A stretch of 64,000 bases of DNA from NCBI GenBank assembly GCA_016208765.1, contig JACQXK010000004.1:84243-148242 (forward strand). The letters run 5' to 3'. A program made the position numbers and the translations under genes. The notes below the pieces were generated by a model. That model ran no database searches and was not told where the DNA came from. It was given only the letters and a program-made list of their open reading frames with translations. The DNA is from Candidatus Omnitrophota bacterium (GTDB taxonomy: Bacteria > Omnitrophota > Gorgyraeia > Gygaellales > Profunditerraquicolaceae). Shown here in pieces: positions 1 to 18,282 of the stretch; position 1 is the stretch's first letter, and every line of letters begins with the position of its first letter.

Positions 1-3025
<3,025 letters not shown>

Positions 3026-3039
3026 ATTTAATCAGCCGC

Positions 3040-3273
3040 TTATTTATAAATATCAGGATTTATTCCCAACTTCTTGATCTTTACGCGCATAGTATTACGA
3101 TTTATCCCCAATATCCTTGCTGCTTTTAATTGATTGCCAAAGGTGCGTTCTAAGGCATATTCAAATAAAGGTTTTTCAATTATATCTAAAATTGCGCGAT
3201 ATACAAAGCCTTTTTTTTCCTTTAACAGGGATTCTTCAATTTCAATTAATTTTTCTTTTAGTCCATCAACCAT
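3040..3273 (-). CDS. Fis-family / NtrC-C-terminal-type HTH DNA-binding mini-protein (77 aa)
   Basis: C-terminal motif GNQLKAARILGINRNTMRVKIKKLGI is the HTH_8 (Fis/NtrC) signature. The gene sits directly upstream of gltB. Confidence 0.7.
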   Translation of the reverse strand: MVDGLKEKLIEIEESLLKEKKGFVYRAILDIIEKPLFEYALERTFGNQLKAARILGINRNTMRVKIKKLGINPDIYK

Positions 3274-3436
3274 GGCATATCCTGCTTAAAGTTTAGGCAA
3301 AGGATTTGTTAAAAAATAGAGGCGTCCATAACAGCCTAAGGTTAAGCTTTTATGAACGCCCCTTTGCGTTTAGTCTTAGTTTAGCACAACTGCGTGCCTT
3401 ATATTACAAGTAAATAAATTTCTTTCTTGGTAACTA
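3274..3436 (-). promoter_or_regulatory. Leader of the fis-like/gltB operon: bipartite motif plus hexaloop hairpin (AACGC-AAAGGG-GCGUU)
   Basis: Plus-strand TACAAGTAAA at 3405-3414 and TGGTAAC at 3428-3434 (23-nt offset, identical to three other leaders). The minus-strand RNA carries an A1/G4 hexaloop hairpin and a U-rich tract. Confidence 0.45.
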
Positions 3437-5659
3437 CTACTTTATAAAAAGCATCTCGCGGTACTTCGGCAGGTCCCAATGCTCGTCTGAGACTACCATT
3501 TCCAGATCATCAACATGCTTACGAATGTGATCCATTAACGGCTTCATTTCTTTATAATATACTTCTGCCCGTTTCTCCTGCTCCATTAAAGATGCTTTCT
3601 CTAAAAGCTTCTTTAATACTCCGGCATTACGCCTTACATAATAAATCTTTGCAACCACCTCATCTAAATGGTCTTTTAGATCCTCAAGCGCCTTTGTATC
3701 AGGCTTTAAACCGGTTTGTTTCTTCAAATTTGCCAAATCAATCAGGTTATCAGCCAATAATTTCTGATACTCAAAGCCTGCCGGAGCAACGCTTGCATTT
3801 ACCATTTCAATTAAAGTGTTTGCCTCAATTTCAAGGGTCAGGTTATACATGTGAATCCAAATATGGTAACGCGCAACCAGCTCTTCCTTGGATAAAACTT
3901 TATATTTTTCAAAGAGGGCTATATTTTCCTTTTTAATAAAAGCCTCTAATGCCTCAAATGTAGCAGCAACATTAGGAAGCCCTCTTTTCGTTGCCTCTTT
4001 TAACCACTCCTCAGAATAATTATTTCCCTCAAAACGCACATCCTTGGTTTCTTTAACCACCTGTGCAATTACCTGCAATACCGCAGAATTAAAATCTTTA
4101 CCGCTTGCCTGCGCTTTTTTGATTTTATCAGCAACATAATCAAGGGAGTCGGCAATAATGGTATTAATTACCGTAATTGATGTAGAAATATTCTGGGATG
4201 AACCTACGGCGCGAAATTCAAATTTCTGCCCGGTAAAAGCAAAAGGAGAAGTGCGGTTCCTGTCGGTTGAATCCTTGCTAAAAGTAGGCAGCCGGGCAAT
4301 TCCAAAATCAATAATATCGCTTTTTGAGATCTGCTTCTTTGTGCCTTTTTCAATCGTATCCAAAACGCGCGACAGCTGATCCCCCAGGAAAACACTGATA
4401 ATTGCAGGAGGAGCTTCATTTGCTCCTAAACGATGCTCGTTTCCGGCAAGAGCGACACTTGCGCGCAAAAGATCGGCATGCAGATAAACCGCTCTTAAAA
4501 CCGCGGACAACACTGCTAAAAACTGCAGGTTATCTTCCGGCGTTTGCCCGGGATTAAGCAGGTTGTTTCCTTTATCATCAGCTAACGACCAATTCAAATG
4601 CTTTCCGCTGCCGTTTATCCCTGCAAAAGGCTTCTCGTGTAAGAGGCAAACTAAATTATGGCGCAAAGCGACTTTCTTCATCAATTCCATCAAAAGCTGG
4701 TTGTGGTCAGCAGCAATGTTAGATTCCTCAAAAATCGGGGCAAACTCATATTGATGAGGCGCAACTTCATTATGCCTGGTCATTACGGGAATTCCTAACT
4801 TATACGCTTCCTCAGCAACTTCAAACATAAAATTCAAAACCCGCTCTTTAATTGTCCCGAAATATTGATCCTCTAACTGCTGGCCTTTAGGAGATGCTGC
4901 TCCTACAAGCGTCCTTCCGGTAAGCAAAAGATCCTGCCTTAGGTTATAATAATTTTTATCAATCAGAAAATACTCCTGCTCAGGGCCGCAGGTTGAAAAA
5001 ATCTTTTTAATATCTTTATGCCCGAAAACTTCCAGCAAATTCTTGGCTGCCTTGTTTAAAGCCTCGTCGGAACGTAAAAGCGGCAGTTTCTTATCCAAGG
5101 CCTCACCGTGATAAGAAATAAATATTGTCGGAATACAAAGGGTTTTCCCTAACTTACTCTCAATGATAAATGCCGGGCTTGAGGGATCCCATGCAGTATA
5201 TCCTCTTGCTTCAAAAGTAGCACGGATACCACCGGAAGGAAATGAGCTTGCATCCGGTTCGCCCTGAATAAGCTTTGATCCGGAAAATTTTTCAATCACC
5301 TTGCCCGGGCCGGTAATAGAAATAAAACTATCGTGCTTCTCTGCGGTCAAGCCGGTCATCGGCTGAAACCAGTGTGTGTAATAAGTAGCCCCTTTTGAAA
5401 TTGCCCACTCTTTCATGGCGTTGGCAATCTCATTAGCCTGTTCTTTGGAAATTTGTTTGCCCTCAGACATCCACGTCTTAAATGCCTCAAAGGTTGCATT
5501 GGAAATATACTTTTGCATAGTTTCAATATTAAAAGTATTCTCTCCAAAGTAAGCGGATACTTTTTCCGGCAAGTCCACCGTTTCTATTTCTATGCTCTTT
5601 ATCTTGGTCAACAACTCCTGTCTGATACCCATAAAAACCTCCACATAGTTAATGCGCAC
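3437..5659 (-). CDS. glnN: Glutamine synthetase type III (GSIII)
   Basis: 740 aa, the typical GSIII length. Catalytic-domain motifs include MTRHNEVAPHQYEFAPIFEE and the NGSGKH region. The gene lies in a nitrogen-gene neighbourhood. Confidence 0.85.
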   Translation of the reverse strand: MRINYVEVFMGIRQELLTKIKSIEIETVDLPEKVSAYFGENTFNIETMQKYISNATFEAFKTWMSEGKQISKEQANEIANAMKEWAISKGATYYTHWFQPMTGLTAEKHDSFISITGPGKVIEKFSGSKLIQGEPDASSFPSGGIRATFEARGYTAWDPSSPAFIIESKLGKTLCIPTIFISYHGEALDKKLPLLRSDEALNKAAKNLLEVFGHKDIKKIFSTCGPEQEYFLIDKNYYNLRQDLLLTGRTLVGAASPKGQQLEDQYFGTIKERVLNFMFEVAEEAYKLGIPVMTRHNEVAPHQYEFAPIFEESNIAADHNQLLMELMKKVALRHNLVCLLHEKPFAGINGSGKHLNWSLADDKGNNLLNPGQTPEDNLQFLAVLSAVLRAVYLHADLLRASVALAGNEHRLGANEAPPAIISVFLGDQLSRVLDTIEKGTKKQISKSDIIDFGIARLPTFSKDSTDRNRTSPFAFTGQKFEFRAVGSSQNISTSITVINTIIADSLDYVADKIKKAQASGKDFNSAVLQVIAQVVKETKDVRFEGNNYSEEWLKEATKRGLPNVAATFEALEAFIKKENIALFEKYKVLSKEELVARYHIWIHMYNLTLEIEANTLIEMVNASVAPAGFEYQKLLADNLIDLANLKKQTGLKPDTKALEDLKDHLDEVVAKIYYVRRNAGVLKKLLEKASLMEQEKRAEVYYKEMKPLMDHIRKHVDDLEMVVSDEHWDLPKYREMLFIK

Positions 5660-5868
5660 TTACGCCATTCCACATAAGCGTAATGTGCCTGTTATTTGTT
5701 ATATTCTACTATATTTTCCAGAAAAAACAAAGGCGTTCTTTTTATTAAGAACGCCTGCGTTCAAATTCGTTGTGTTGGCACTGCAATGTACCATAGCATA
5801 ATTCCTGCTCTACTCTTATTACAAGTAAACTTGTATCTATTTTGGTAACAAACTTTTAGTGGAACTAA
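5660..5868 (-). promoter_or_regulatory. glnN 5' leader: putative promoter motif, ANTAR-type dual hexaloop hairpins and an intrinsic terminator (attenuator)
   Basis: Plus-strand motif TACAAGTAAA 5820-5829 / TGGTAAC 5843-5849. Minus-strand RNA: P1 UGGUAC-AUUGCA-GUGCCA (5776-5793); P2 GAAC-GCAGGC-GUUC (5749-5763), sharing GGCGUUC with the terminator GGCGUUCUU-AAUAAA-AAGAACGCC (5732-5755) followed by UUUGUUUUUU. Confidence 0.6.
5732..5755 (-). terminator. Leader intrinsic terminator (attenuator) upstream of glnN
   Basis: Perfect 9-bp stem GGCGUUCUU/AAGAACGCC with a 6-nt loop, followed on the minus-strand RNA by UUUGUUUUUU. Confidence 0.6.
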
Positions 5869-6117
5869 TTATCCAATAGCAAGAGAGCCTCTCTCCCCTG
5901 TGCGTATGCGCACGCATTCAGATAACTCCATAACAAATATCTTACCGTCTCCTGTTGAGCCGCTTTTAGCGCCGTTAATAATGGCGTTAATGGCTGGTTC
6001 AAGGAAATTATCATTTACAGCTATTTCAAGACGGATCTTACGCAGGAGATTACCTGTTTCTTTGGCTCCGCGATAAACCTCGGTAACACCCTTTTGCCGA
6101 CCATGGCCCAAGCACAA
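5869..6117 (-). CDS. glnK: PII nitrogen regulatory protein (GlnK/GlnB), N-terminally truncated copy 1; it starts at the T-loop and lacks about 34 N-terminal residues
   Basis: [17 protein letters not shown]...[23 protein letters not shown] aligns to PII residues ~35-112. No MKKIEAII-type N-terminus is present in any frame upstream. The 5' end overlaps the tail of the amtB1 ORF by 68 nt. Confidence 0.6.
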   Translation of the reverse strand: MCLGHGRQKGVTEVYRGAKETGNLLRKIRLEIAVNDNFLEPAINAIINGAKSGSTGDGKIFVMELSECVRIRTGERGSLAIG

Positions 6118-7246
6118 ATTTATAGATCACAATTGTCCCGACAAACGTAAAACCAACAGCAACCGCAACACCCAGCAATTGAATAAACAGTTGTTTTGGA
6201 TTCCCAAAAAACAATCCGTCAGCTCCGGCAGGGTTAATCGCTTTTGAAGCAAACAAACCTGTGGCAATGGTCCCTAATATCCCGCCTACACCATGCACGC
6301 CAAAGGCATCAAGAGAATCGTCATAATTAAACATTGGTTTAATCAGCGCAACGGAGATAAAACAAAAAATACTTGCCAAAACCCCGATGATCAAAGCAGA
6401 TAGCGGGCTGACAAAACCACAAGCAGGCGTAATAGTAGCTAAACCGGCAATTATTCCGGTGACAGTCCCAAAGACCGTAGGTTTTCCATTGCGGATCCAC
6501 TCAAGCACCGCCCAGCTTAAACCTGCGCTTGCAGCAGCGGTATTTGTAACCACAAATGCATTGGCTGCCAAGCCATTTGCCGCAAGAGCGCTTCCTGCGT
6601 TAAAACCAAACCATCCAAACCAGAGCAATGCTGTTCCCAAAACCACTAAGGGCAAATTATGCGGAGCTGGCAAATGATGATCCATATTCTTACGCTTACC
6701 TATAATTATTGCCGTAACTAAAGCTGTAATCCCGGCGCTGGTATGCACAACAATCCCTCCTGCAAAATCAAGAACGCCCAAATTCTTTAACCATCCTCCA
6801 TCACCCCAAACCCAATGACAAAGCGGATCATACACAAAAGTCGCCCAAAGAAGCGTAAACACCAAAAAAGCAGAGAATCTTATTCTCTCAGCAAAAGCAC
6901 CAATAATCAGAGCTGGAGTGATCACAGCAAACATTGATTGAAAAGACATAAAAGCAATATGAGGTATAGTTACGCCATACGCTGCATAAGGTTCTGTTCC
7001 TACTCCAATCAAACCCAACCACGATAAACCACCCCAGAAACCTTTTCCCGGAGCAAAAGAAAGGCTATAACCAAAGATTACCCATTGCACGCTTAAAAGG
7101 CATATTGCCACAAAACACTGCATCAACACACTCAAAACATTTTTTCGCCTGACCATCCCTCCATAGAAGAAAGCCAGACCCGGAGTCATCAGCAAAACCA
7201 GGGCTGTTGAAAACAAAACCCATGCCGTATCACCTGAATTAATCAT
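6050..7246 (-). CDS. amtB: Ammonium transporter AmtB, copy 1; its 3' end runs out of frame into glnK
   Basis: 398 aa with full Amt/MEP conservation (FFYGG, HNLP..., GFNAGSA). The C-terminal tail ...[19 protein letters not shown] is the glnK T-loop region read in the -1 frame. Confidence 0.85.
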   Translation of the reverse strand: MINSGDTAWVLFSTALVLLMTPGLAFFYGGMVRRKNVLSVLMQCFVAICLLSVQWVIFGYSLSFAPGKGFWGGLSWLGLIGVGTEPYAAYGVTIPHIAFMSFQSMFAVITPALIIGAFAERIRFSAFLVFTLLWATFVYDPLCHWVWGDGGWLKNLGVLDFAGGIVVHTSAGITALVTAIIIGKRKNMDHHLPAPHNLPLVVLGTALLWFGWFGFNAGSALAANGLAANAFVVTNTAAASAGLSWAVLEWIRNGKPTVFGTVTGIIAGLATITPACGFVSPLSALIIGVLASIFCFISVALIKPMFNYDDSLDAFGVHGVGGILGTIATGLFASKAINPAGADGLFFGNPKQLFIQLLGVAVAVGFTFVGTIVIYKFVLGPWSAKGCYRGLSRSQRNR

Positions 7247-7464
7247 AACCAGCCTCCTCCTTATTTGCCTTATCTAAAAAACAAAGGCGTCCTTTAAATA
7301 AAGAACGCCTGCGTTCAATTTATGCTGTAACTGCTTCCGCACTCCGACGTGCTTAAGCATAAATCCATTAAAGCTGAGTTATAAGAAAAATACCCAACTT
7401 TTCGGATTATTATAAGTACAAGTAAAGAATTGGCTGTTTTGGTAACCCTTTTTTATCCTTTTTT
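7247..7464 (-). promoter_or_regulatory. amtB1 5' leader: bipartite motif, hexaloop hairpin and terminator (ANTAR-type attenuator)
   Basis: Plus-strand TACAAGTAAA 7417-7426 / TGGTAAC 7440-7446. P2 palindrome gaacgcctgcgttcaa at 7304-7319 overlaps the terminator ggcgtccttt...aagaacgcc (7286-7310), which is preceded on the plus strand by aaaaaacaaa (a U-tract on the RNA). Confidence 0.55.
7286..7310 (-). terminator. Leader intrinsic terminator upstream of amtB1
   Basis: Stem GGCGUUCUUU/AAAGGACGCC followed by UUUGUUUUUU on the minus-strand RNA. Confidence 0.55.
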
Positions 7465-7713
7465 CTATCCTATTGCCATCACCCCCCTCTCCTCAGTACG
7501 TATACGTATGCATTCAGATAACTCCATAACAAATATCTTACCGTCTCCTGTTGAGCCGCTTTTAGCACCGTTAATAATGGCGTTAATGGCTGGTTCAAGG
7601 AAATTATCATTTACAGCTATTTCAAGACGGATCTTACGCAGGAGATTACCTGTTTCTTTGGCTCCGCGATAAACCTCGGTAACACCCTTTTGCCGACCAT
7701 GGCCCAAGGCCAC
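7465..7713 (-). CDS. glnK: PII nitrogen regulatory protein (GlnK), N-terminally truncated copy 2
   Basis: (IV)[19 protein letters not shown]...[14 protein letters not shown]. It begins 5 nt after the amtB2 stop and again starts at the T-loop. About 190 nt are ~98 % identical to copy 1. Confidence 0.6.
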
Positions 7714-7721
7714 AATACTAA

Positions 7722-8951
7722 TTATTCTAAAACAGTATACGCGCTTTCACGGTGCTGGGTAAGGTCTAAACCGATAACCTCATCCTTCTCTGATACCCTG
7801 ATACCAATAAACAGATCCACCAATTTATAAATAACAAAAGTTGTAACAGCAGTATAAACAATGGTAACAAGCACTGTTATTAACTGCACCAAAAATTGTT
7901 TTGGATTCCCAAAAAATAATCCGTCAGCTCCGGCAGGGTTAATTGCCTTTGAAGCGAAGAGCCCTGTTGCCAAAGCGCCCCAAATCCCACCCACACAATG
8001 CACGCCAAAAGCATCCAGCGCATCGTCATATCCTAATCTCGGCTTTATGATCGTTACTGCCACAAAACAAAACACGCTTACTAATAACCCGATCACAATT
8101 GCCGGCACCACCCCCACGTAACCGGCTGCAGGAGTAATTGCCACAAGCCCTGCTACTGCGCCGCTGACTGTTCCAAAAAGAGTAGGCTTACCATTACGCA
8201 ACCATTCAATCAGCGCCCAGGAAAGTCCTGCAGCAGCAGCCGCAGTATTAGTAACCACAAACGCGTTTACTGCCAAGCCATTTGCCGCAAGAGCACTTCC
8301 TGCGTTAAAACCAAACCATCCGAACCAAAGTAATGCCGTACCTAAAACTACAAAAGGCAAATTATGCGGAGCAGGCAAATGATGATCAAGATTTTTCCTG
8401 CGGCCGATTACAAGCGCTGTTACAATAGCTGCAATTCCAGCGTTAATATGCACAACTGTTCCGCCTGCAAAATCCAAAGCTCCTAAATTTCTTAAAAATC
8501 CTCCTATGCCCCACACCCAATGGCAAAGCGGATTATACACAAAAGTCGCCCAGAGAATTGTAAAAACTAAAAACGCCGAAAATTTCATCCTCTCGGCAAA
8601 AGCTCCAATAATAAGCGCCGGCGTAATAATTGCGAACATCGCCTGAAAGATCATAAATGCCTGATGAGGAATTGTTCCTGCATAATCTGCATACGGCTCA
8701 AGGCCCACGCCATTTAAAGCAAACCAACTAAATCCTCCCCAAAAGCCTTTTCCGGGAGCAAATGACAAGCTATAACCGAATAAAACCCATTGCAGGCTTA
8801 AAACACAAAGCACAATAAAACACTGCATCAGAACCCCGAGAATATTCTTGCGCCTGACCATACCCCCATAAAAAAATGCCAGGCCCGGCGTCATAAGCAT
8901 TACTAACGCCGTAGACATCAACACCCATGCTGTATCACCTGCATTAATCAT
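7722..8951 (-). CDS. amtB: Ammonium transporter AmtB, copy 2, with an intact C-terminal tail
   Basis: 409 aa, about 75 % identical to copy 1. It has the canonical cytoplasmic tail ...[26 protein letters not shown]. Confidence 0.9.
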
Positions 8952-8969
8952 CTCTTTCCTCCTTTTTGA

Positions 8970-9767
8970 TTAAAAATCCATATCCAGCTGAAAAGTAACT
9001 GTATTTCTTAAATTTTTATTATTGTAAATGTCGTAACCAAATATCGCGGAAATATTGTTTGTGAACTTCCATGAAAAACCAACGTTAAGCGCCCCATAAG
9101 AAGATTGCGTTCCCTGATAATCAACACACAGCCAAAGTTTATCAGATATTTCTGACATGGTGCGCTCCCAGGCAAATAGCGGCCCGATATTGTCCCGTTC
9201 AGAATCTTTATCCCTTAATAATTTGGCGTTACCGTTAAAATATCCGGCGGAGAATCTGCCCAAATTAAACTTGCCAATATTAATTGTTTTTGCCCCTCTA
9301 AGATACCAAACATTATTATTTGTTTTATTGCGTTTTGTGCCGACATCATACACGCCGATGGCAAATGCTGGCATATTCTTAAAATAAGCATCCTCAGGCA
9401 CAGCCGCTTTAAAATTAAAGTAAAACGGATATGTATCTAATGATGAACCAAATCCTTTCTTATAATCAAACCCTGTTTCAGCCATAATTTTCCCTAAAGG
9501 CTGCCAAACACGCCCCAATAAATTATCTTCAGGTTTGTCAGACAAAAGGCTGAACGTAGAGCCATAGACTTGCTGAATATATGTTTTTATTTCATTCTTG
9601 TCTTTGCTTCTTACCGGGAAATACAAATCAGAGCCGATATGTATTTTCTTATATGGCTGGATATCTGTAGATGGCGACCAGATCAAAGTTGTAGGCGTAG
9701 CGAAAACAATTGCCGCATTTAAAACAAAAAACATCAAACCAAGAATTATTACACCCGTTTTTTTCAT
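8970..9767 (-). CDS. Putative outer-membrane beta-barrel protein (signal peptide; C-terminal ...QLDMDF)
   Basis: N-terminal hydrophobic signal peptide, alternating beta-strand pattern and a C-terminal aromatic residue. It shares an operon with amtB2. Confidence 0.45.
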   Translation of the reverse strand: MKKTGVIILGLMFFVLNAAIVFATPTTLIWSPSTDIQPYKKIHIGSDLYFPVRSKDKNEIKTYIQQVYGSTFSLLSDKPEDNLLGRVWQPLGKIMAETGFDYKKGFGSSLDTYPFYFNFKAAVPEDAYFKNMPAFAIGVYDVGTKRNKTNNNVWYLRGAKTINIGKFNLGRFSAGYFNGNAKLLRDKDSERDNIGPLFAWERTMSEISDKLWLCVDYQGTQSSYGALNVGFSWKFTNNISAIFGYDIYNNKNLRNTVTFQLDMDF

Positions 9768-9966
9768 TTATTGCATCCTCCTTTTAAAATAAAAAGCGCC
9801 TTTCTATCCAACACTGGAAAAAGAAAGACGCCCGCGTCTTAAAACCACCCTATAAACAAAAAAGCGTTCTTTATAGAACGCCCATGTCTTATACACCTCT
9901 GTGTGTATTTGCTGCGAAATATTGCACTTACATCAATACAAGTAAAAACCCTCTTTATCTGGTAAC
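9768..9966 (-). promoter_or_regulatory. Leader of the OMP-amtB2 operon: bipartite motif, hexaloop hairpin and two tandem terminators
   Basis: Plus-strand TACAAGTAAA 9937-9946 / TGGTAAC 9960-9966. Hexaloop AGAC-AUGGGC-GUUCU. Terminator 1 gcgttctttatagaacgc at 9855-9883 and terminator 2 aagacgcccgcgtctt at 9816-9840, each followed by U-tracts on the RNA. Confidence 0.5.
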
Positions 9967-10521
9967 CTAATCCAGGTATTTTTTACACTTTCCCCTGATA
10001 CTTGCCATCATTTTCACTACGCGCACATGAGAAACTCCGCAGCATTTTCCGATTTCTCTTGTAGTCAGCCCCTCGGAAAATAACCTTAGAAGCTGTTTTT
10101 CCCGGGTTGTAAAACCGTTGTTATGAATAGTTTCAGCAAGTAATTTACTGTTTAAAGTATCAAGAAAATTATCCGCAGAGGTATCCCTAAGAAGCAAGGA
10201 CTCCTCAAAATTGTTCCCCTCCTGATTAACAATTGCCTCAATACTTACAAGCCTTGATTTATCTTTTATCTTACGTAAATAATTCCTTAAATGAAAATAG
10301 CAGCCCTGTAATACATAGCTATCGGTCTTATCTGTCAGCTTTCCGGATGAGTAATCCTGCCAAAGATGCACAAGCGCCTCCTGATAAAGATCGTCATCCC
10401 CAAGAAAACGGCAGTAGCCGTTTAATTTATAGGTAATCCGCCTTAAAACAGGAGAAATCTTCTTTACTATTTGTTCAAATTCCATACCCCTCATCCTTAT
10501 AGAAAACAAAAAAGCGCCCAT
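9967..10521 (-). CDS. RNA polymerase sigma factor, sigma-70 family (ECF-like, 184 aa)
   Basis: Region-2-like DDLYQEALVHLWQ and region-4 HTH LTTREIGKCCGVSHVRVVKMMASIRGK. Confidence 0.6.
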   Translation of the reverse strand: MGAFLFSIRMRGMEFEQIVKKISPVLRRITYKLNGYCRFLGDDDLYQEALVHLWQDYSSGKLTDKTDSYVLQGCYFHLRNYLRKIKDKSRLVSIEAIVNQEGNNFEESLLLRDTSADNFLDTLNSKLLAETIHNNGFTTREKQLLRLFSEGLTTREIGKCCGVSHVRVVKMMASIRGKCKKYLD

Positions 10522-10653
10522 AATCCATTGCTGGATAAAGGACGCCTCAGTCCAAAAAAAAGCCTTCGCGGCATATTAACTTTGCCTTGAAGACCTCTGT
10601 GTCTCTATTACATCACTGTAATTAATTAAAGTTTACCACAAAATACCTTCTTG

Positions 10654-11376
10654 TCAAGTTTTACCTTTAATATCTCTGGCTAAAATAATTGCCTCGGCTA
10701 TTTCGCGCATGGTTTTACGGGTGTCCATGCTTTGTTTCTGGATCAGGCGAAATGCCTCAGAAGAAGAAATATTGGCTTCCTGAGAAAGAATGTCTTTTGC
10801 GCGTTCAATAAGCTTACGTGTGGTCAGGGCTTCTTCGGCGCTTCGCGCACGCAGGTCAAGCTCGGCATTTTCAATTGCTACTGCCGCCTGATTTGCAAGT
10901 GCGGTTAAAACATCCATCTCCTGTTTGGAGAATTTATGTTTTTTAGATGTGTAACAGTTTAATACCCCGATTACTTTGGATTTAACCGATAGAGGAACGC
11001 ATGCCAAAGAAACCAGATTCTCAGCCTTTGCAATATCGCGGTTTAAATAACCCGCATCCTTACGCACATCCTCCACGTAAACCGCCTTGTTTTCCAAAGC
11101 AACAACTCCGGCAATCCCCTGGCCTAATTTGATATTTGGTTTTTTATTATATGCTTCTGAGATAGATTGTGTTGCCCGCACCACCAGTTCTTTTTTCTCA
11201 GGATCAAGCAGTAAAAGCGAGGAAACCTTGGAATTCATCACCTCGGCAGTGACCTGCACCACCAAACGCAGCAATTCATCCAAATACAAACCTGAAGTGA
11301 TCAGGTTAGCTATTTTGGAAAGCGCCTCAATCTGTTTAACATAAATTTGATAGTGCCGGGCTTTAGTAGTAGACAT
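10654..11376 (-). CDS. GAF-ANTAR transcription antitermination regulator
   Basis: N-terminal GAF-like sensor. The C-terminal ANTAR domain (...LTTRKLIERAKDILSQEANISSSEAFRLIQKQSMDTRKTMREIAEAII...) matches the AmiR/NasR family. Confidence 0.75.
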   Translation of the reverse strand: MSTTKARHYQIYVKQIEALSKIANLITSGLYLDELLRLVVQVTAEVMNSKVSSLLLLDPEKKELVVRATQSISEAYNKKPNIKLGQGIAGVVALENKAVYVEDVRKDAGYLNRDIAKAENLVSLACVPLSVKSKVIGVLNCYTSKKHKFSKQEMDVLTALANQAAVAIENAELDLRARSAEEALTTRKLIERAKDILSQEANISSSEAFRLIQKQSMDTRKTMREIAEAIILARDIKGKT

Positions 11377-11379
11377 AAT

Positions 11380-12537
11380 TTAACGCCTCTTTTCTAAAAA
11401 TATTTCCATGCGCTTTAACGCCTCTTTTAAATTATCAAAACTTGATGCGTAAGAAATGCGCACATAATTATCAAGTCCGCTGCCAAAGGCAGTGCCCGGG
11501 ACAACTGCTACCTTCTGCTCTTTTAACAAGCTTTGCGCAAAATCAATCGCATTCATTCCGGTTTTCTTTATTGAAGGAAAGGCATAAAAAGCCCCTTGAG
11601 GTTTATGGCAGGTCAAACCAATACGGTTTAAGCCGTCAATCACAAATTCCCGCCTTCTTTTATATTCACGCTTCATTTCTTCAACAAATCTTCTTCCTGA
11701 AACTATTGCCTCTGCTGCAGCCATCTGGGCTGTGATAGAAACACACATAATTGTATATTGATGTATTTTGGTCATTGCGGCAATAACCTCTTTCGGCCCG
11801 CAGGCAAAACCCACACGCCAGCCGGTCATAGCATAACTTTTGGAAAAACCATCCAGATAAACAGTGTTATCTATTGCTCCGGGCAAAGTAGCAAAATGCG
11901 TGTGATTAAAATCATAGGTCAGGTCGCAATAAACCTCATCGCAGATTGCCATAACTTTATGTTTCAATAATACCTTATTAATTTCATAAAGCTCTTTTCT
12001 TGTATAAGAAACACCCGTGGGATTTGAAGGATAATTTAAGATAATTGCCTTGGTTTTTTTGTCAATGTTCTTTTCCAGCTCTTGCGGCGTGATCTTAAAA
12101 CCGTTCTTTGCCGTATTAATATACACTGGGACGCCGCCTGCTAACTCGGTAACCGGCCCATAAGAAACATAGCTCGGCTGAGGGACAATCACCTTATCCT
12201 GCGGCTCAAGAATAGAACGCAAAACTAAATCCACTCCCTCGCTGACACCGACAGTAATTAAGATTTCCTCATCAGGGCAATATTTTAAGCCGCATTTATC
12301 TTTAAGGTAATTGCTGATACCTAATCTTAACTTATATAATCCTTTATTGGAAGTATAAGACGTAAATCCGCTTTCCAAAGAATAGATCCCTGCCTCACAG
12401 ATTGGCCAGGGGGTAACAAAATCAGGCTCCCCCACCCCTAAAGAAATAACATCCTTCATTCCGAGCACTAAATCAAAGAATGCACGGATTCCCGAAGGCT
12501 GCATTTCTTCCACTTTTTTAGAAATAATATTTCTCAT
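11380..12537 (-). CDS. Pyridoxal-phosphate-dependent aminotransferase, class I (aspartate/aromatic family)
   Basis: 385 aa with class-I fold motifs (SNPTG, the YSFSKSYAMTGWRVG Lys region). Confidence 0.75.
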   Translation of the reverse strand: MRNIISKKVEEMQPSGIRAFFDLVLGMKDVISLGVGEPDFVTPWPICEAGIYSLESGFTSYTSNKGLYKLRLGISNYLKDKCGLKYCPDEEILITVGVSEGVDLVLRSILEPQDKVIVPQPSYVSYGPVTELAGGVPVYINTAKNGFKITPQELEKNIDKKTKAIILNYPSNPTGVSYTRKELYEINKVLLKHKVMAICDEVYCDLTYDFNHTHFATLPGAIDNTVYLDGFSKSYAMTGWRVGFACGPKEVIAAMTKIHQYTIMCVSITAQMAAAEAIVSGRRFVEEMKREYKRRREFVIDGLNRIGLTCHKPQGAFYAFPSIKKTGMNAIDFAQSLLKEQKVAVVPGTAFGSGLDNYVRISYASSFDNLKEALKRMEIFLEKRR

Positions 12538-12565
12538 CTTAATTACCGATTACGAATTACAATAT

Positions 12566-13066
12566 TTAATACGATATCGCTATCCTCTTATTCTCTTGCT
12601 TATGCTTTAGTATAACACCATCTTCTTTATATTTTTTCAACAAAAAATGCGTAACTGTCCCGCGCACATTCTCCAAACATGCCAGTTTTTCCGCAACAAA
12701 ACGCGAAACATCATGGATGGTCTTTCCCTCAATCACCACCAAAAGGTCATATGTCCCGGAAATTAAATAGCAGCTCGTTACCTCGGGAAAAGAATATATC
12801 CTCTCGGCGATCTTCTCAAAGCCCAGATCTTTCTGAGGAACAACTTTTACTTCAATAAGCGCACGGGCAAGAGAATCCTCCCTGCGCACCAATTCTTTAT
12901 TAATTACCGCCTTGTATTTAATGATAATCCCATTTTTCTCCAATTTCTTAATTTCATCTTTTACTGTTTGAGGCTTTAATTTTAGCATCTTGGCGATTTC
13001 TTCCGGAGTGATACGCGCGTCTTTTTCTAAGATCTCAATAATTTCATTCATTTTTAATCCTCCCAT
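12566..13066 (-). CDS. lrp: Lrp/AsnC-family transcriptional regulator
   Basis: 166 aa: N-terminal HTH (ILEKDARITPEEIAKMLKL...) plus a C-terminal RAM domain. Confidence 0.75.
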   Translation of the reverse strand: MGGLKMNEIIEILEKDARITPEEIAKMLKLKPQTVKDEIKKLEKNGIIIKYKAVINKELVRREDSLARALIEVKVVPQKDLGFEKIAERIYSFPEVTSCYLISGTYDLLVVIEGKTIHDVSRFVAEKLACLENVRGTVTHFLLKKYKEDGVILKHKQENKRIAISY

Positions 13067-13095
13067 AAAACTGAGTTACCTGTATCTGCGTAAAC

Positions 13096-13812
13096 TTAAA
13101 TTAAACAAATCCTCGGCCCCTGGCGCTTGTGTTCTGAAAGCCTGTGCATATTAACAACCTTAGAAACCTTTATTTTAGAAACAGAATGCCTTTTACCTTT
13201 AAACATACAATCCAGAATGTCATCCAACTCCGGATAAGTAATGCCCATCTCTTTTTCATCGGTCTGCCCCGGCCAAAGCCCTGCAGTAGGCGTCTTTTTA
13301 ATAATCTGCTCAGGGATCCCTAATTCTTTTGCCAATAACACAACCTGCTTTTTTAGCAACCCGCCGATAGGCAAGATATCGTTTGCTCCGTCGCCGTGCT
13401 TTGTAAAATATCCGACGCTTAATTCTGACTTATTGCCTGTGCCGGCGACTAAATAATTATATTTATTAGCAAAATAGTAAAGCGTGAGCATCCTCAGCCG
13501 CGGCTTAAGATTTGCCCGCGCCATAGGGCTTGCCTCTGGCAAAACTTTTGTCAAACTATCAAAAATATTTGATAAATCTACAGTCTTAGTTTGTATACCT
13601 AAAGTTTTTGCCAGGAACTTTGCATCAATTAAATCCTGCGGCTGACTATGGCATGGTAAAAATAGGCCTAAAACATTATTTTTCCCCGCCGCTTCTTTTG
13701 ATAAAGCTGCTACTACACTTGAATCTATCCCACCGGATAGGCCCATCACAATCCCCTTGGCCCCGGAAGATTTTACCTGCTTCTTTATCCAATTTATAAT
13801 TTTACTGCGCAT
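13096..13812 (-). CDS. nadE: NH3-dependent NAD+ synthetase
   Basis: PP-loop GLSGGIDSSVVAAL, 238 aa. Confidence 0.75.
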   Translation of the reverse strand: MRSKIINWIKKQVKSSGAKGIVMGLSGGIDSSVVAALSKEAAGKNNVLGLFLPCHSQPQDLIDAKFLAKTLGIQTKTVDLSNIFDSLTKVLPEASPMARANLKPRLRMLTLYYFANKYNYLVAGTGNKSELSVGYFTKHGDGANDILPIGGLLKKQVVLLAKELGIPEQIIKKTPTAGLWPGQTDEKEMGITYPELDDILDCMFKGKRHSVSKIKVSKVVNMHRLSEHKRQGPRICLI

Positions 13813-17400: not shown

Positions 17401-17430
17401 TAAACAAATTACAAAGCGAATTCATCTTCA

Positions 17431-18282
17431 TCACCATTTCTTCAGTTTCCTAAACTTATATCTTATAATTACCGCCACCAAATTTACCGATAGCACCATA
17501 AACAACAGCACCAAAGCTGTGCCGTAGCGGATCTTTTCATCTACATTCGGCACCTGCGTAGAAATAACATACAAATGATACGGTAGAGCCATAGCCTGAT
17601 CAAAAATAGAACTTGGTAATTGCGGCAGGTAAAATGCCGCTACAGTAAAAAGAATAGGAGCGGTTTCTCCTGCTGCCCTGCCCACTCCTAAAATTGTCCC
17701 GGTAATAATCCCCGGAACAGCATTAGGCAAAACTATGTTACGAATCGTCTGCCATTTGCTTGCTCCTAAAGACAGGCTGACCTCGCGAAATGACTGTGGC
17801 ACGCTCTCAAGCGCCTCAACGGAAGAAGTAATAATTATAGGTAAAATCATCAGGCCCAAAGTCAATGAACCAGAAAGAATGGATGCCCCGAATTTAAAGA
17901 AAACAACAAACAACGCCAGGCCGAACAAACCGTAAACAACCGAAGGAACACCTGCCAAATTAACAATAGACAGCTTAATCAGGCGGGTAAGAATATTTGC
18001 CCTTGCATATTCACTCAAGTATACTGCAGCCAATAAACCAATTGGCAGGGCGAAAGAAATCGCGCCCAAAACTAAATACACTGTGCCGACAATTGCCGGA
18101 AAAATTCCTCCGGCACGCATCCCCTGGCGTGGCATATCTGTTAAAAACTGCCAGTTAATTGCAGGAAGGCCTTTCTGAATTATAATTACAATGATTAACC
18201 CAACAGGCACTATAATTAAAAGCGTGGCAAGCAGTAAAAAGAAAAAAGCAATTTTCTGGGTACGTTGAGGGTTTCTCTTCAT
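17431..18282 (-). CDS. pstA: Phosphate ABC transporter permease PstA
   Basis: 283 aa with six TM segments and the EAA-like loop (GASKWQTIRNIVLP). Confidence 0.85.
   Translation of the reverse strand: MKRNPQRTQKIAFFFLLLATLLIIVPVGLIIVIIIQKGLPAINWQFLTDMPRQGMRAGGIFPAIVGTVYLVLGAISFALPIGLLAAVYLSEYARANILTRLIKLSIVNLAGVPSVVYGLFGLALFVVFFKFGASILSGSLTLGLMILPIIITSSVEALESVPQSFREVSLSLGASKWQTIRNIVLPNAVPGIITGTILGVGRAAGETAPILFTVAAFYLPQLPSSIFDQAMALPYHLYVISTQVPNVDEKIRYGTALVLLFMVLSVNLVAVIIRYKFRKLKKW

Follow-up and report, generated by a model that had tools for sequence, protein, structure and literature searches.

Ramesh 2012 (PMC3369931) defined the RNA targets of ANTAR proteins as a dual-hexaloop motif, two hairpins whose 6-nt loops have A in the first and G in the fourth position (A1/G4), and predicted the motif in Desulfotomaculum, Pelobacter, and others before P-II, ammonium transporter, glutamine synthetase (GS), and glutamate synthase (GOGAT) genes. 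The minimal ANTAR motif was later redefined as a single hexaloop (Walshe 2022, PMC8934654), and a nitrogen cascade with an ANTAR response regulator was described in Geobacter (Ueki & Lovley 2010, PMC2995071). Here we analyze a 64-kb stretch of Candidatus Omnitrophota DNA (the window), annotated with Pfam and NCBIfam, in which genes for a GAF-ANTAR protein and an ECF-like sigma factor precede four nitrogen operons (porin-amtB2-glnK, amtB1-glnK, glnN, and fis-like-gltB), all on the minus strand. Hexaloop hairpins overlap intrinsic terminators in the leaders of the sigma gene and of the four operons, and the locus is likely to encode a switch for nitrogen assimilation in which ANTAR-type transcription attenuation operates at two tiers. 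To our knowledge, nothing is known about gene regulation in Omnitrophota, a phylum without a cultured model, and our literature search for ANTAR in Omnitrophota gave no relevant paper.

In the case of the eut leaders of Enterococcus faecalis and their regulator EutV (PMC3369931; PMC8934654), the likeness to the Omnitrophota leaders includes two short A1/G4 hexaloop hairpins with conserved closing pairs, a second hairpin that excludes the terminator, several such leaders per regulon, and a retained aromatic residue for stacking on G4. However, EutV is a phosphorylated REC-ANTAR protein of ethanolamine genes, whereas the present regulator is a one-component GAF-ANTAR protein of ammonium assimilation; moreover, the linkers here reach 12-22 nt in some leaders, and tandem and single-hexaloop modules are common. 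The regulons predicted in Desulfotomaculum and Pelobacter (PMC3369931) share the dual hexaloop before P-II, ammonium transporter, GS, and GOGAT genes, with several units per genome, but the locus described here belongs to Omnitrophota and has a GAF sensor, a sigma-gene target apparently driving the others, and a type III GS target. GnfL/GnfM-GnfK/GnfR of Geobacter sulfurreducens (PMC2995071) also form a two-level cascade, in which an ANTAR protein overcomes terminators placed after promoters that nitrogen limitation activates. There, a sigma-54 activator stands on top and induces an ANTAR two-component system, whereas here an ANTAR protein would stand on top and gate an ECF-like sigma factor, without a histidine kinase. 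NasR and the nasF leader of Klebsiella oxytoca (PMC12591593; PMC7496416) likewise combine a one-component protein, with a ligand domain joined to ANTAR, and a hexaloop beside the terminator of a nitrogen-assimilation operon, but the NIT domain of NasR senses nitrate/nitrite and its one operon is under NtrC/sigma-54, in contrast to the GAF domain and at least five leaders found here. The actinobacterial ANTAR-target RNAs (PMC8164766) are similar as dual hairpins found by covariance models in a phylum where they had been missed earlier; they mostly overlap start sites and act on translation, whereas the Omnitrophota elements overlap intrinsic terminators. Only two one-component ANTAR proteins, NasR and PAL, had been characterised by 2020, and a 2025 review names no GAF-ANTAR example. 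Given the 2012 prediction and the Geobacter cascade, the kind of control is already known; new are its occurrence in Omnitrophota, the defined regulon of a GAF-ANTAR protein, a sigma gene as primary target with the other targets sharing its presumed promoter, and the frequent tandem and single-hexaloop attenuators.

The original prediction for this DNA, made from the sequence, had named ANTAR leaders before the four nitrogen operons and a weaker one before the sigma gene. We found the sigma leader to be the most canonical of the five, with both loops A1/G4 (AGUGAU and ACAGAG). Its elements, in which P1 and P2 are the first and second hexaloop hairpins and T1 and T2 the terminators, are as follows.

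10630-10657, minus strand: housekeeping-type promoter TTGACA-16-TG-n-TAAACT, the best promoter-scan match (10/12, extended -10)
10608-10621, minus strand: P1, UUAC-AGUGAU-GUAA (A1, G4)
10591-10604, minus strand: P2, AGAC-ACAGAG-GUCU (A1, G4), with its 3' arm shared with T1
10554-10598, minus strand: T1, a stem and U8, part of the minimum free energy (MFE) structure
10540-10553, minus strand: second module, the single hairpin GGAC-UGAGGC-GUCC (U1, G4)
10503-10546, minus strand: T2 (GGCGUCC...GGGCGC and a U-run), overlapping the second-module hairpin

P1 and P2 of the sigma leader are separated by a 3-nt linker. In other species the promoter is kept as TTGACA...TGnTATACT, and the pattern GGAC-N3-G-N2-GUCC is kept in nearly all sigma leaders. 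The sigma open reading frame (ORF) starts at ATG 10485 behind AAGGATGAGGGG and encodes 172 aa, as in the gene calls on locus L001 and on L083, so that the leader spans 10486-10653; the mechanical ORF start at 10521 falls within T2. The four operon leaders share one and the same promoter motif, and contain the following elements.

9937-9966, minus strand: promoter motif GTTACC-N14-TTTACTTGTA of porin-amtB2-glnK
9891-9908, minus strand: porin/amtB2 P1, AUACAC-ACAGAG-GUGUAU (A1, G4)
9877-9888, minus strand: porin/amtB2 P2, GAC-AUGGGC-GUU (A1, G4), overlapping T1, with a 3-bp stem including one G.U pair
9854-9883, minus strand: porin/amtB2 T1
9825-9840, minus strand: porin/amtB2 second module, AAGAC-GCGGGC-GUCUU (G1, G4)
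9786-9832, minus strand: porin/amtB2 T2, a long stem with an inner UCCA/UGGA hairpin and then a U-run, of a design like that in other species
7417-7446, minus strand: the same promoter motif, amtB1-glnK
7339-7352, minus strand: candidate amtB1 P1, GCAC-GUCGGA-GUGC (G1, G4), 22 nt upstream of P2
7303-7316, minus strand: amtB1 P2, GAAC-GCAGGC-GUUC (G1, G4)
7276-7310, minus strand: amtB1 terminator
5820-5849, minus strand: the same promoter motif, glnN
5776-5793, minus strand: glnN P1, UGGUAC-AUUGCA-GUGCCA (A1, G4)
5749-5762, minus strand: glnN P2, GAAC-GCAGGC-GUUC (G1, G4)
5722-5756, minus strand: glnN terminator, AGGCGUUCUUAAUAAAAAGAACGCCU + UUGUUUUUU
3405-3434, minus strand: the same promoter motif, fis-like-gltB
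3383-3398, minus strand: gltB P1, GGCAC-GCAGUU-GUGCU (G1, G4), in orthologues GCAC-RUUGUA-GUGC
3355-3370, minus strand: gltB P2, AACGC-AAAGGG-GCGUU (A1, G4)
3311-3363, minus strand: gltB terminator with a long loop, AGGGGCGUUCAUAA...UUAUGGACGCCUCU and a U-run, part of the MFE structure

The hairpins that the original prediction quoted, with loops AUUGCA, AAAGGG, and AUGGGC and with GAAC-GCAGGC-GUUC at two sites, are all present, as are the glnN terminator overlapping its hexaloop hairpin and the equivalents in the other three operon leaders. As for the A1/G4 rule, G4 occurs in every window loop, but several loops (GCAGUU, GUCGGA, and GCAGGC) start with G instead of A. P1 of the amtB1 leader is uncertain, and the covariance model described below prefers a nearer, non-hexaloop hairpin. 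In orthologues the porin/amtB2 P2 is AAC-ANNGGC-GUU, and AGAC-GCAGGC-GUCU recurs as the second module. All five window leaders have the order promoter, P1, P2 overlapping the terminator, and ribosome-binding site, and in all five the 5' arm of the terminator contains the 3' arm of the hexaloop hairpin. P2 and the terminator exclude each other in all five, and the MFE structure forms the terminator and not P2 in 5/5 leaders. The isolated P2 hairpins of the window have free energies of +0.2 to -3.9 kcal/mol, and P2 of the sigma leader by itself only about -2 kcal/mol, whereas the terminator stems of equivalent leaders in other species reach values between about -10 and -19 kcal/mol; by default, the leaders thus terminate transcription. 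In the second modules of the sigma and porin leaders, a single hexaloop lies 3' of T1 and its 3' half opens the longer terminator T2. The second tandem modules, the shared promoter motif, and a probable bypass promoter of glnN were absent from the original prediction.

A scan of one genome per GTDB species gave 80 Omnitrophota loci encoding the GAF-ANTAR protein (1.09 Mb). From these, 23 sigma leaders, picked via a GAC-N6-GTC anchor with no condition on the loops, were aligned by MAFFT. We re-derived the loop statistics from this loop-blind alignment. G4 is present in both loops of 23/23 leaders, A1 in 20/23 (P1) and 18/23 (P2), and the other four positions vary. In the 10-bp stem of T1 in the orthologous sigma leaders, pairing is 96% and 4 pairs are compensatory; of 500 shuffles, none reaches any observed measure. 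A dual-hairpin alignment of 41 sequences from three leader classes was based on a hand-curated seed, because the automatic pair search, which required G4 and a perfect-stem terminator, missed long-loop terminators and chose some wrong pairs. Its stems are 91.5% paired, compared with 26-45% when the partners are slid by 1-3 columns, and show C-G/U-A, A-U/G-C, and A-U/G-C/G-U swaps. Over all comparisons of this kind the values are 91.5-91.9% and 26-50%, five pairs changed on both sides, and in each hairpin the closing C-G pair shows little or no variation. Most of this covariation comes from the comparison of paralogous leader classes, as the stems hardly vary within one class.

The covariance model built here (R1) has 35 positions and ends one base after P2, so that the terminator lies outside the model. 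Searched on both strands of the window, R1 finds the five leaders at 33.9, 31.7, 27.6, 20.6, and 13.0 bits, of which the two lowest are outside the seed, and no further minus-strand match with E < 0.8. The single plus-strand match (5713-5739, 17.5 bits, E 0.016) lies antisense to the terminator of the glnN leader. In the 80 species loci, R1 gives 71 matches at E <= 0.5, and 70 of them are on the gene strand (p = 6e-20). Bar a few weak ones, they all lie upstream of genes for the sigma factor, porins (Gcw_chp/BBP2), AmtB, GlnN, Fis-GltB, glutamine-dependent NadE, a GAF-ANTAR paralogue, or an amino-acid-permease-PII fusion. The few weak matches (E 0.05-0.4) precede Proton_antipo_M genes directly after GAF-ANTAR and may represent the terminator of the regulator's own operon. 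A 6-nt loop is found in 62/71 P1 and 71/71 P2 hairpins, with A1 in 85% and G4 in 100% of the P1 loops and A1 in 76% and G4 in 97% of the P2 loops, and 65/70 matches continue directly into a terminator whose stem includes the P2 3' arm. The design of the window leaders recurs in about 30 of the 80 species loci and in the 120 metagenome contigs described below. About one third of the glnN leaders have no P1. The loop length, the A1/G4 pattern, the closing C-G pair, the exclusivity of P2 and terminator, the conservation across the phylum, and the neighbouring ANTAR gene in conserved synteny together support the ANTAR-target reading of the original prediction.

Elsewhere in the phylum, attenuators and/or the promoter motif also precede genes for a glutamine-dependent NAD synthetase (CN_hydrolase + NAD_synthase; in some cases in one transcript with sigma), the amino-acid-permease-PII fusion, the GAF-ANTAR paralogue, type I GlnA, and a class-I glutamine amidotransferase (L009 17581-19480, L063 17884-19638, L058 4348-6373, and L070 17544-18456; L143, L187, and others from metagenomes). 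REP-like (repetitive extragenic palindromic) units, some in tandem, lie between attenuator modules, such as GCCCACAAGGGCACACCAAACAATCCTATATGTTTGGGTGTT and CGCCA...GGCGAATCCGCC (L006 ~17420-17540; L010, L030, L044, L019, and L034). In the glnN leaders of most species (L011-L074), a conserved extended -10 element, TTGTGGTAnAAT, is located 3' of the terminator, where the window has TATAGTAGAAT (5703-5713); it is probably a second glnN promoter by which basal GS expression escapes the attenuator. In glnN, glnA, and gltB leaders (e.g., L102, L105, L124, and L187), the linker that follows P1 has a recurring AAAUUAGGCA-like sequence, which is AAACUAAGAC at 3371-3382 of the window. The hairpin model does not account for this sequence, which could serve as an additional recognition element.

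The motif GTTACC-N14-TTTACTTGTA has 4 exact copies in the 64 kb, against 0.00 expected, all of them before nitrogen operons. Across species the conserved blocks are GTTACCA and TTYTTTACTTGTA, and the motif has a fixed, promoter-like geometry, with GTTACC, a 16-nt spacer, an ACTTGTA-type -10, and a purine ~6 nt downstream. The 80 species loci contain 52 gene-strand copies, always before porin, amtB, glnN, or gltB; the motif is found directly 3' of the sigma stop codon in every locus with sequence there, and never before sigma. Sigma-54 (GG-N10-GC), NtcA (GTA-N8-TAC), and Bacteroidetes (TAnnTTTG) promoters were compared with the motif by eye and dropped, since neither spacing nor bases fit.

As an independent sample, we picked metagenome contigs by the promoter motif alone, which gave 120 contigs with 138 motif copies. 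The next genes after the motif encode GlnN (23), AmtB (21), the 265-aa protein that is the putative porin of the window (18), other porins (13), Fis/GltB (11), type I GlnA (10), PII (6), and class-I amidotransferase (3), and the remaining scattered singletons are probably chance matches. The commonest gene upstream of the motif is sigma. On 100 of these contigs R1 gives 75 matches at E <= 0.1, 75/75 on the motif strand. A dual-hexaloop match lies within 160 nt 3' of 56/110 motif copies (15/16 in the porin class), and the other 19 matches, judged by position, are probably sigma-type leaders. The glnN/glnA leaders are of two types, a dual type, GCAC-RNNGUA-GUGC ... GAAC-ANAGGC-GUUC, and a single type, AGAAC-AGRGGC-GUUCU, at the extreme 5' end of the predicted transcript.

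Judged from sequence, the motif is probably read by the neighbouring ECF-like sigma factor. Nitrogen control would then not be by attenuation alone: the four operons also share a non-housekeeping promoter, probably read by a sigma factor that is itself under an attenuator. The alternative that retains most probability, although we consider it unlikely, leaves the attenuators as described and takes the motif as the operator or promoter of another factor, such as the Fis-type helix-turn-helix protein or a different sigma factor, with the sigma gene a mere member of the regulon. The TTAC repeats in the motif could indeed form a transcription-factor site, a Fis-type DNA-binding protein is co-transcribed with gltB, and three loci (L013, L033, and L073) have the motif without a sigma gene within the 10 kb examined. 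However, the two-block geometry with its 16-nt spacer, like that of -35 and -10 elements, and the purine ~6 nt downstream point to a promoter, and the motif replaces a housekeeping promoter rather than joining one. Furthermore, sigma alone in the regulon lacks the motif and has the strongest attenuator, as a cascade predicts.

The sigma factor itself has about 400 homologues, and every named one is from Omnitrophota/Omnitrophica or an unclassified 'bacterium'. With 172 aa, it is a small sigma-70 family protein with regions 2 and 4 only, and its homologues carry PF04542 plus PF04545, PF08281, or GerE. The sigma locus lacks the typical ECF context of a co-transcribed anti-sigma gene and an autoregulated promoter of its own type: the gene downstream is the porin gene with its own promoter, and the gene upstream is mostly GAF-ANTAR and in some loci nadE. 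In the loci examined, a TTGACA/TATACT-type promoter drives sigma, and GTTACC-N14-TTTACTTGTA is never found in that role. The sigma factor thus appears to be controlled by attenuation instead of an anti-sigma factor, and to be ECF-like by sequence and not by regulation.

The GAF-ANTAR gene directly upstream of the sigma leader encodes the putative antiterminator, and the identical protein is recorded in NCBI for Candidatus Omnitrophota. Its ANTAR domain (PF03861, E 1.8e-18) covers profile positions 3-54/54 and matches the PDB sequences 1s8n (Rv1626, 1.4e-9), 6wsh (EutV, 5e-7), and 4akk (NasR, 2e-5). The structure of EutV with RNA shows G4 flipped out and stacked on a tyrosine, Tyr164 (Walshe 2022, PMC8934654). 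By alignment (chain numbering offset by 2), Tyr164 corresponds to Phe in the window protein and in Rv1626, to Trp in NasR, and to Tyr in the consensus of 15 Omnitrophota orthologues. The GAF domain most closely resembles the GAF domains of PtsP (EI-Ntr) and NifA/Nlh (NifA-like) proteins. GAF domains of the PtsP and NifA types respond to glutamine and/or 2-oxoglutarate, and our guess is that the ligand here is a nitrogen-status metabolite such as one of these two. Nearly all 80 species share a syntenic block of NH3-dependent NadE, an AsnC/Lrp-type regulator, a class I/II aminotransferase, and GAF-ANTAR (window 11380-13812; loci L003-L082), which places the regulator in an amino-acid/nitrogen context even where the amtB/glnN cluster lies elsewhere. 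In about 30 of the 80 loci, sigma, porin, 1-3 amtB-glnK pairs, glnN, and fis-like-gltB come next in this order, either adjoining the block or a few kb further on.

A second, improbable alternative accepts the switches and assigns their reading to another ANTAR protein encoded elsewhere, for example of the response-regulator type, or to an unrelated RNA-binding protein. Such a reader would fit the 64-kb view of the genome, the second GAF-ANTAR paralogue (49-59% identity) in some Omnitrophota loci, and the non-A1 loops and single-hairpin modules, which could belong to a second specificity. Against it, the GAF-ANTAR gene (10654-11376) is the only ANTAR ORF in the window, and the first attenuator comes immediately after it both here and in about 20 other species loci; in about 10 more it is within a few kb, and elsewhere the cluster is located a few kb downstream or off the contig. 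In addition, the protein is unusually conserved (76-83% identity across the phylum, with 74-83% given for the 80 loci of the scan), and A1/G4 hexaloop recognition is known for no other protein family. The GAF-ANTAR protein is the inferred binder of the leaders.

The genes of the window, from upstream to downstream, are aminotransferase, GAF-ANTAR, sigma, the 265-aa protein, AmtB2, P-II, AmtB1, P-II, GlnN, HTH_8, and GltB.

11380-12537, minus strand: class I/II aminotransferase, upstream of the GAF-ANTAR gene
10654-11376, minus strand: GAF-ANTAR one-component regulator, 240 aa, proposed antiterminator (Pfam GAF_2 5e-23, ANTAR 1.8e-18)
9967-10485, minus strand: ECF-like (group IV type) sigma factor, 172 aa (TIGR02937 sigma70-ECF, 49.4 bits, cutoff 42.9)
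7465-9767, minus strand: operon 1, with a 265-aa putative outer-membrane protein (8970-9767), AmtB2 (7722-8951), and a 5'-truncated glnK (7465-7713); AmtB2 and P-II by Pfam
5869-7246, minus strand: operon 2, with AmtB1 (6050-7246, C-terminus cut) and a 5'-truncated glnK (5869-6117); by Pfam
3437-5659, minus strand: glnN, type III GS (Pfam GSIII_N 1e-76)
1-3273, minus strand: operon 4, with a Fis-type HTH_8 protein (3040-3273, 77 aa) and gltB, from 3022 off the window end

The 265-aa protein (8970-9767) has no match in Pfam or NCBIfam and a signal-peptide-like N-terminus; its homologues match Gcw_chp weakly, and the same position in other species is occupied by BBP2 porins. It is probably an outer-membrane channel paired with AmtB. 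Both glnK (P-II) genes of the window are without their first 33 codons, and amtB1 is without its 3' end (5869-6117, 6050-6200, and 7465-7722), whereas the closest relative, L083, with 84% nt identity and the same gene order, encodes a 113-aa P-II and two 409-aa AmtB proteins. Relative to L083, the window lacks about 160 and 207 nt, and the two gaps have the same end point, a glnK codon exactly at the start of a ~190-nt stretch identical in the two window copies, and a Logan contig of the same organism breaks at the glnK gap point. The truncations probably stem from a misassembly induced by the repeat, or else may reflect a deletion that gene conversion has spread. The Fis-type HTH_8 protein beside gltB has 77 aa in the window and in L083, and 127-151 aa elsewhere (L011 16782-17237, L012 16736-17119). 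In the longer proteins only HTH_8 was detected and the N-terminal extension has no Pfam match; a check for a receiver domain found none beside HTH_8, and we rejected the idea that they are NtrC-like.

Several points weigh against the two-tier ANTAR switch. The loops deviate from the known motif, as 4/10 main loops have G1 instead of A1, the second-module loops have U1 or G1 with a G4 that is also part of the terminator stem, and pairing within the terminator partly accounts for the G4 of GGC-type P2 loops. The stems are only 3-5 bp long, and many glnN leaders of other species possess just a single hairpin. The linkers of the gltB, glnN, and amtB1 leaders in the window measure 12, 13, and 22 nt; across species, the sigma and porin/amtB2 classes have ~2-11 nt and the gltB, glnN, and amtB1 classes 12-24 nt. 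In the eut leaders the linkers are 5-12 nt, and linkers of 3 or 14 nt impaired EutV, with 14 nt strongly cutting induction (Ramesh 2012, PMC3369931). The covariation amounts to few independent events, mostly between paralogous leader classes, and the seeds were hand-curated. The link between sigma and the motif draws only on adjacency and motif shape, and the window covers only 64 kb of a genome that may encode another ANTAR protein elsewhere, as some species carry the paralogue. Moreover, since the window glnK genes look truncated, part of the regulon may be misassembled or defective.

It is very improbable that the hairpins are incidental, the leaders holding ordinary constitutive terminators or insulators between operons whose hexaloop overlap arises by chance or as a by-product of G+C-rich arms. 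P2 stems of just 3-4 bp would suit this explanation, an overlapping hexaloop hairpin of some kind is within reach of 36% of the control terminators, and the GGC of many P2 loops belongs to the terminator stem. However, a stringent terminator with an overlapping hexaloop of the R1/G4 type (R = purine) is found in 21/35 nitrogen leaders (60%) and in only 3/89 opposite-strand controls (3%; p = 1e-11). The terminators sit downstream, not upstream, of the promoters; P1 and the 5' arm of P2 are outside the terminators and yet conserved, with an invariant G4 among variable neighbours; and the matches of the covariance model are specific by strand and gene class. Least credible of all, at a barely appreciable probability, are protein-free, metabolite-binding riboswitches (e.g., glutamine-sensing), for although the leaders stand before glutamine and ammonium genes as glutamine riboswitches do, Rfam (release 15) gives no match anywhere in the window at gathering thresholds, those seen at E <= 10 in 3000-11500 are of chance level, and the conserved part, two 14-nt hairpins with variable linkers, is too small and loosely joined for a ligand pocket.

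In the two-tier switch that we favor, the housekeeping-type promoter at 10630-10657 would transcribe the sigma leader with its two tandem intrinsic terminators. A nitrogen-status metabolite would switch on the GAF-ANTAR protein at its GAF domain, and an ANTAR dimer would then bind the nascent hexaloops and hold P2 closed. With the 5' arm of the terminator unavailable, RNA polymerase would read into the sigma gene. In the second tier, the sigma factor would direct RNA polymerase to the four GTTACC-N14-TTTACTTGTA promoters, and each transcript would meet one or two hexaloop/terminator modules and need the same antiterminator. The outcome would be a coherent feed-forward AND gate with tight off-states and two serial terminators at the top. 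We extend this tentatively, with somewhat less than even confidence, to the whole phylum: one GAF-ANTAR protein would be the master nitrogen regulator of Omnitrophota, directly sensing a nitrogen-status metabolite and acting twice, on a phylum-specific ECF-like sigma factor without an anti-sigma factor and then on every sigma-dependent transcript. Its regulon would comprise porin-AmtB-GlnK, GlnN/GlnA, GltB, and NadE, would include natural single-hexaloop attenuators, and would replace NtrBC/sigma-54, GlnR, or NtcA.

If true, this would be the first in vivo case of the single-hexaloop 'minimal' ANTAR motif proposed from the EutV structure, and would provide a clean, phylum-wide regulon for a GAF-ANTAR protein. 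The natural variation of these RNAs, with A1 or G1/U1 loops, linkers of 2-24 nt, and single or dual hairpins, could calibrate the prediction of ANTAR targets. The locus would also offer a candidate promoter consensus for a new sigma-factor family and an example of a sigma factor under transcription attenuation rather than an anti-sigma factor. For the organisms themselves, the ratio of coverage across the terminators would be a simple metatranscriptome read-out of their nitrogen status.

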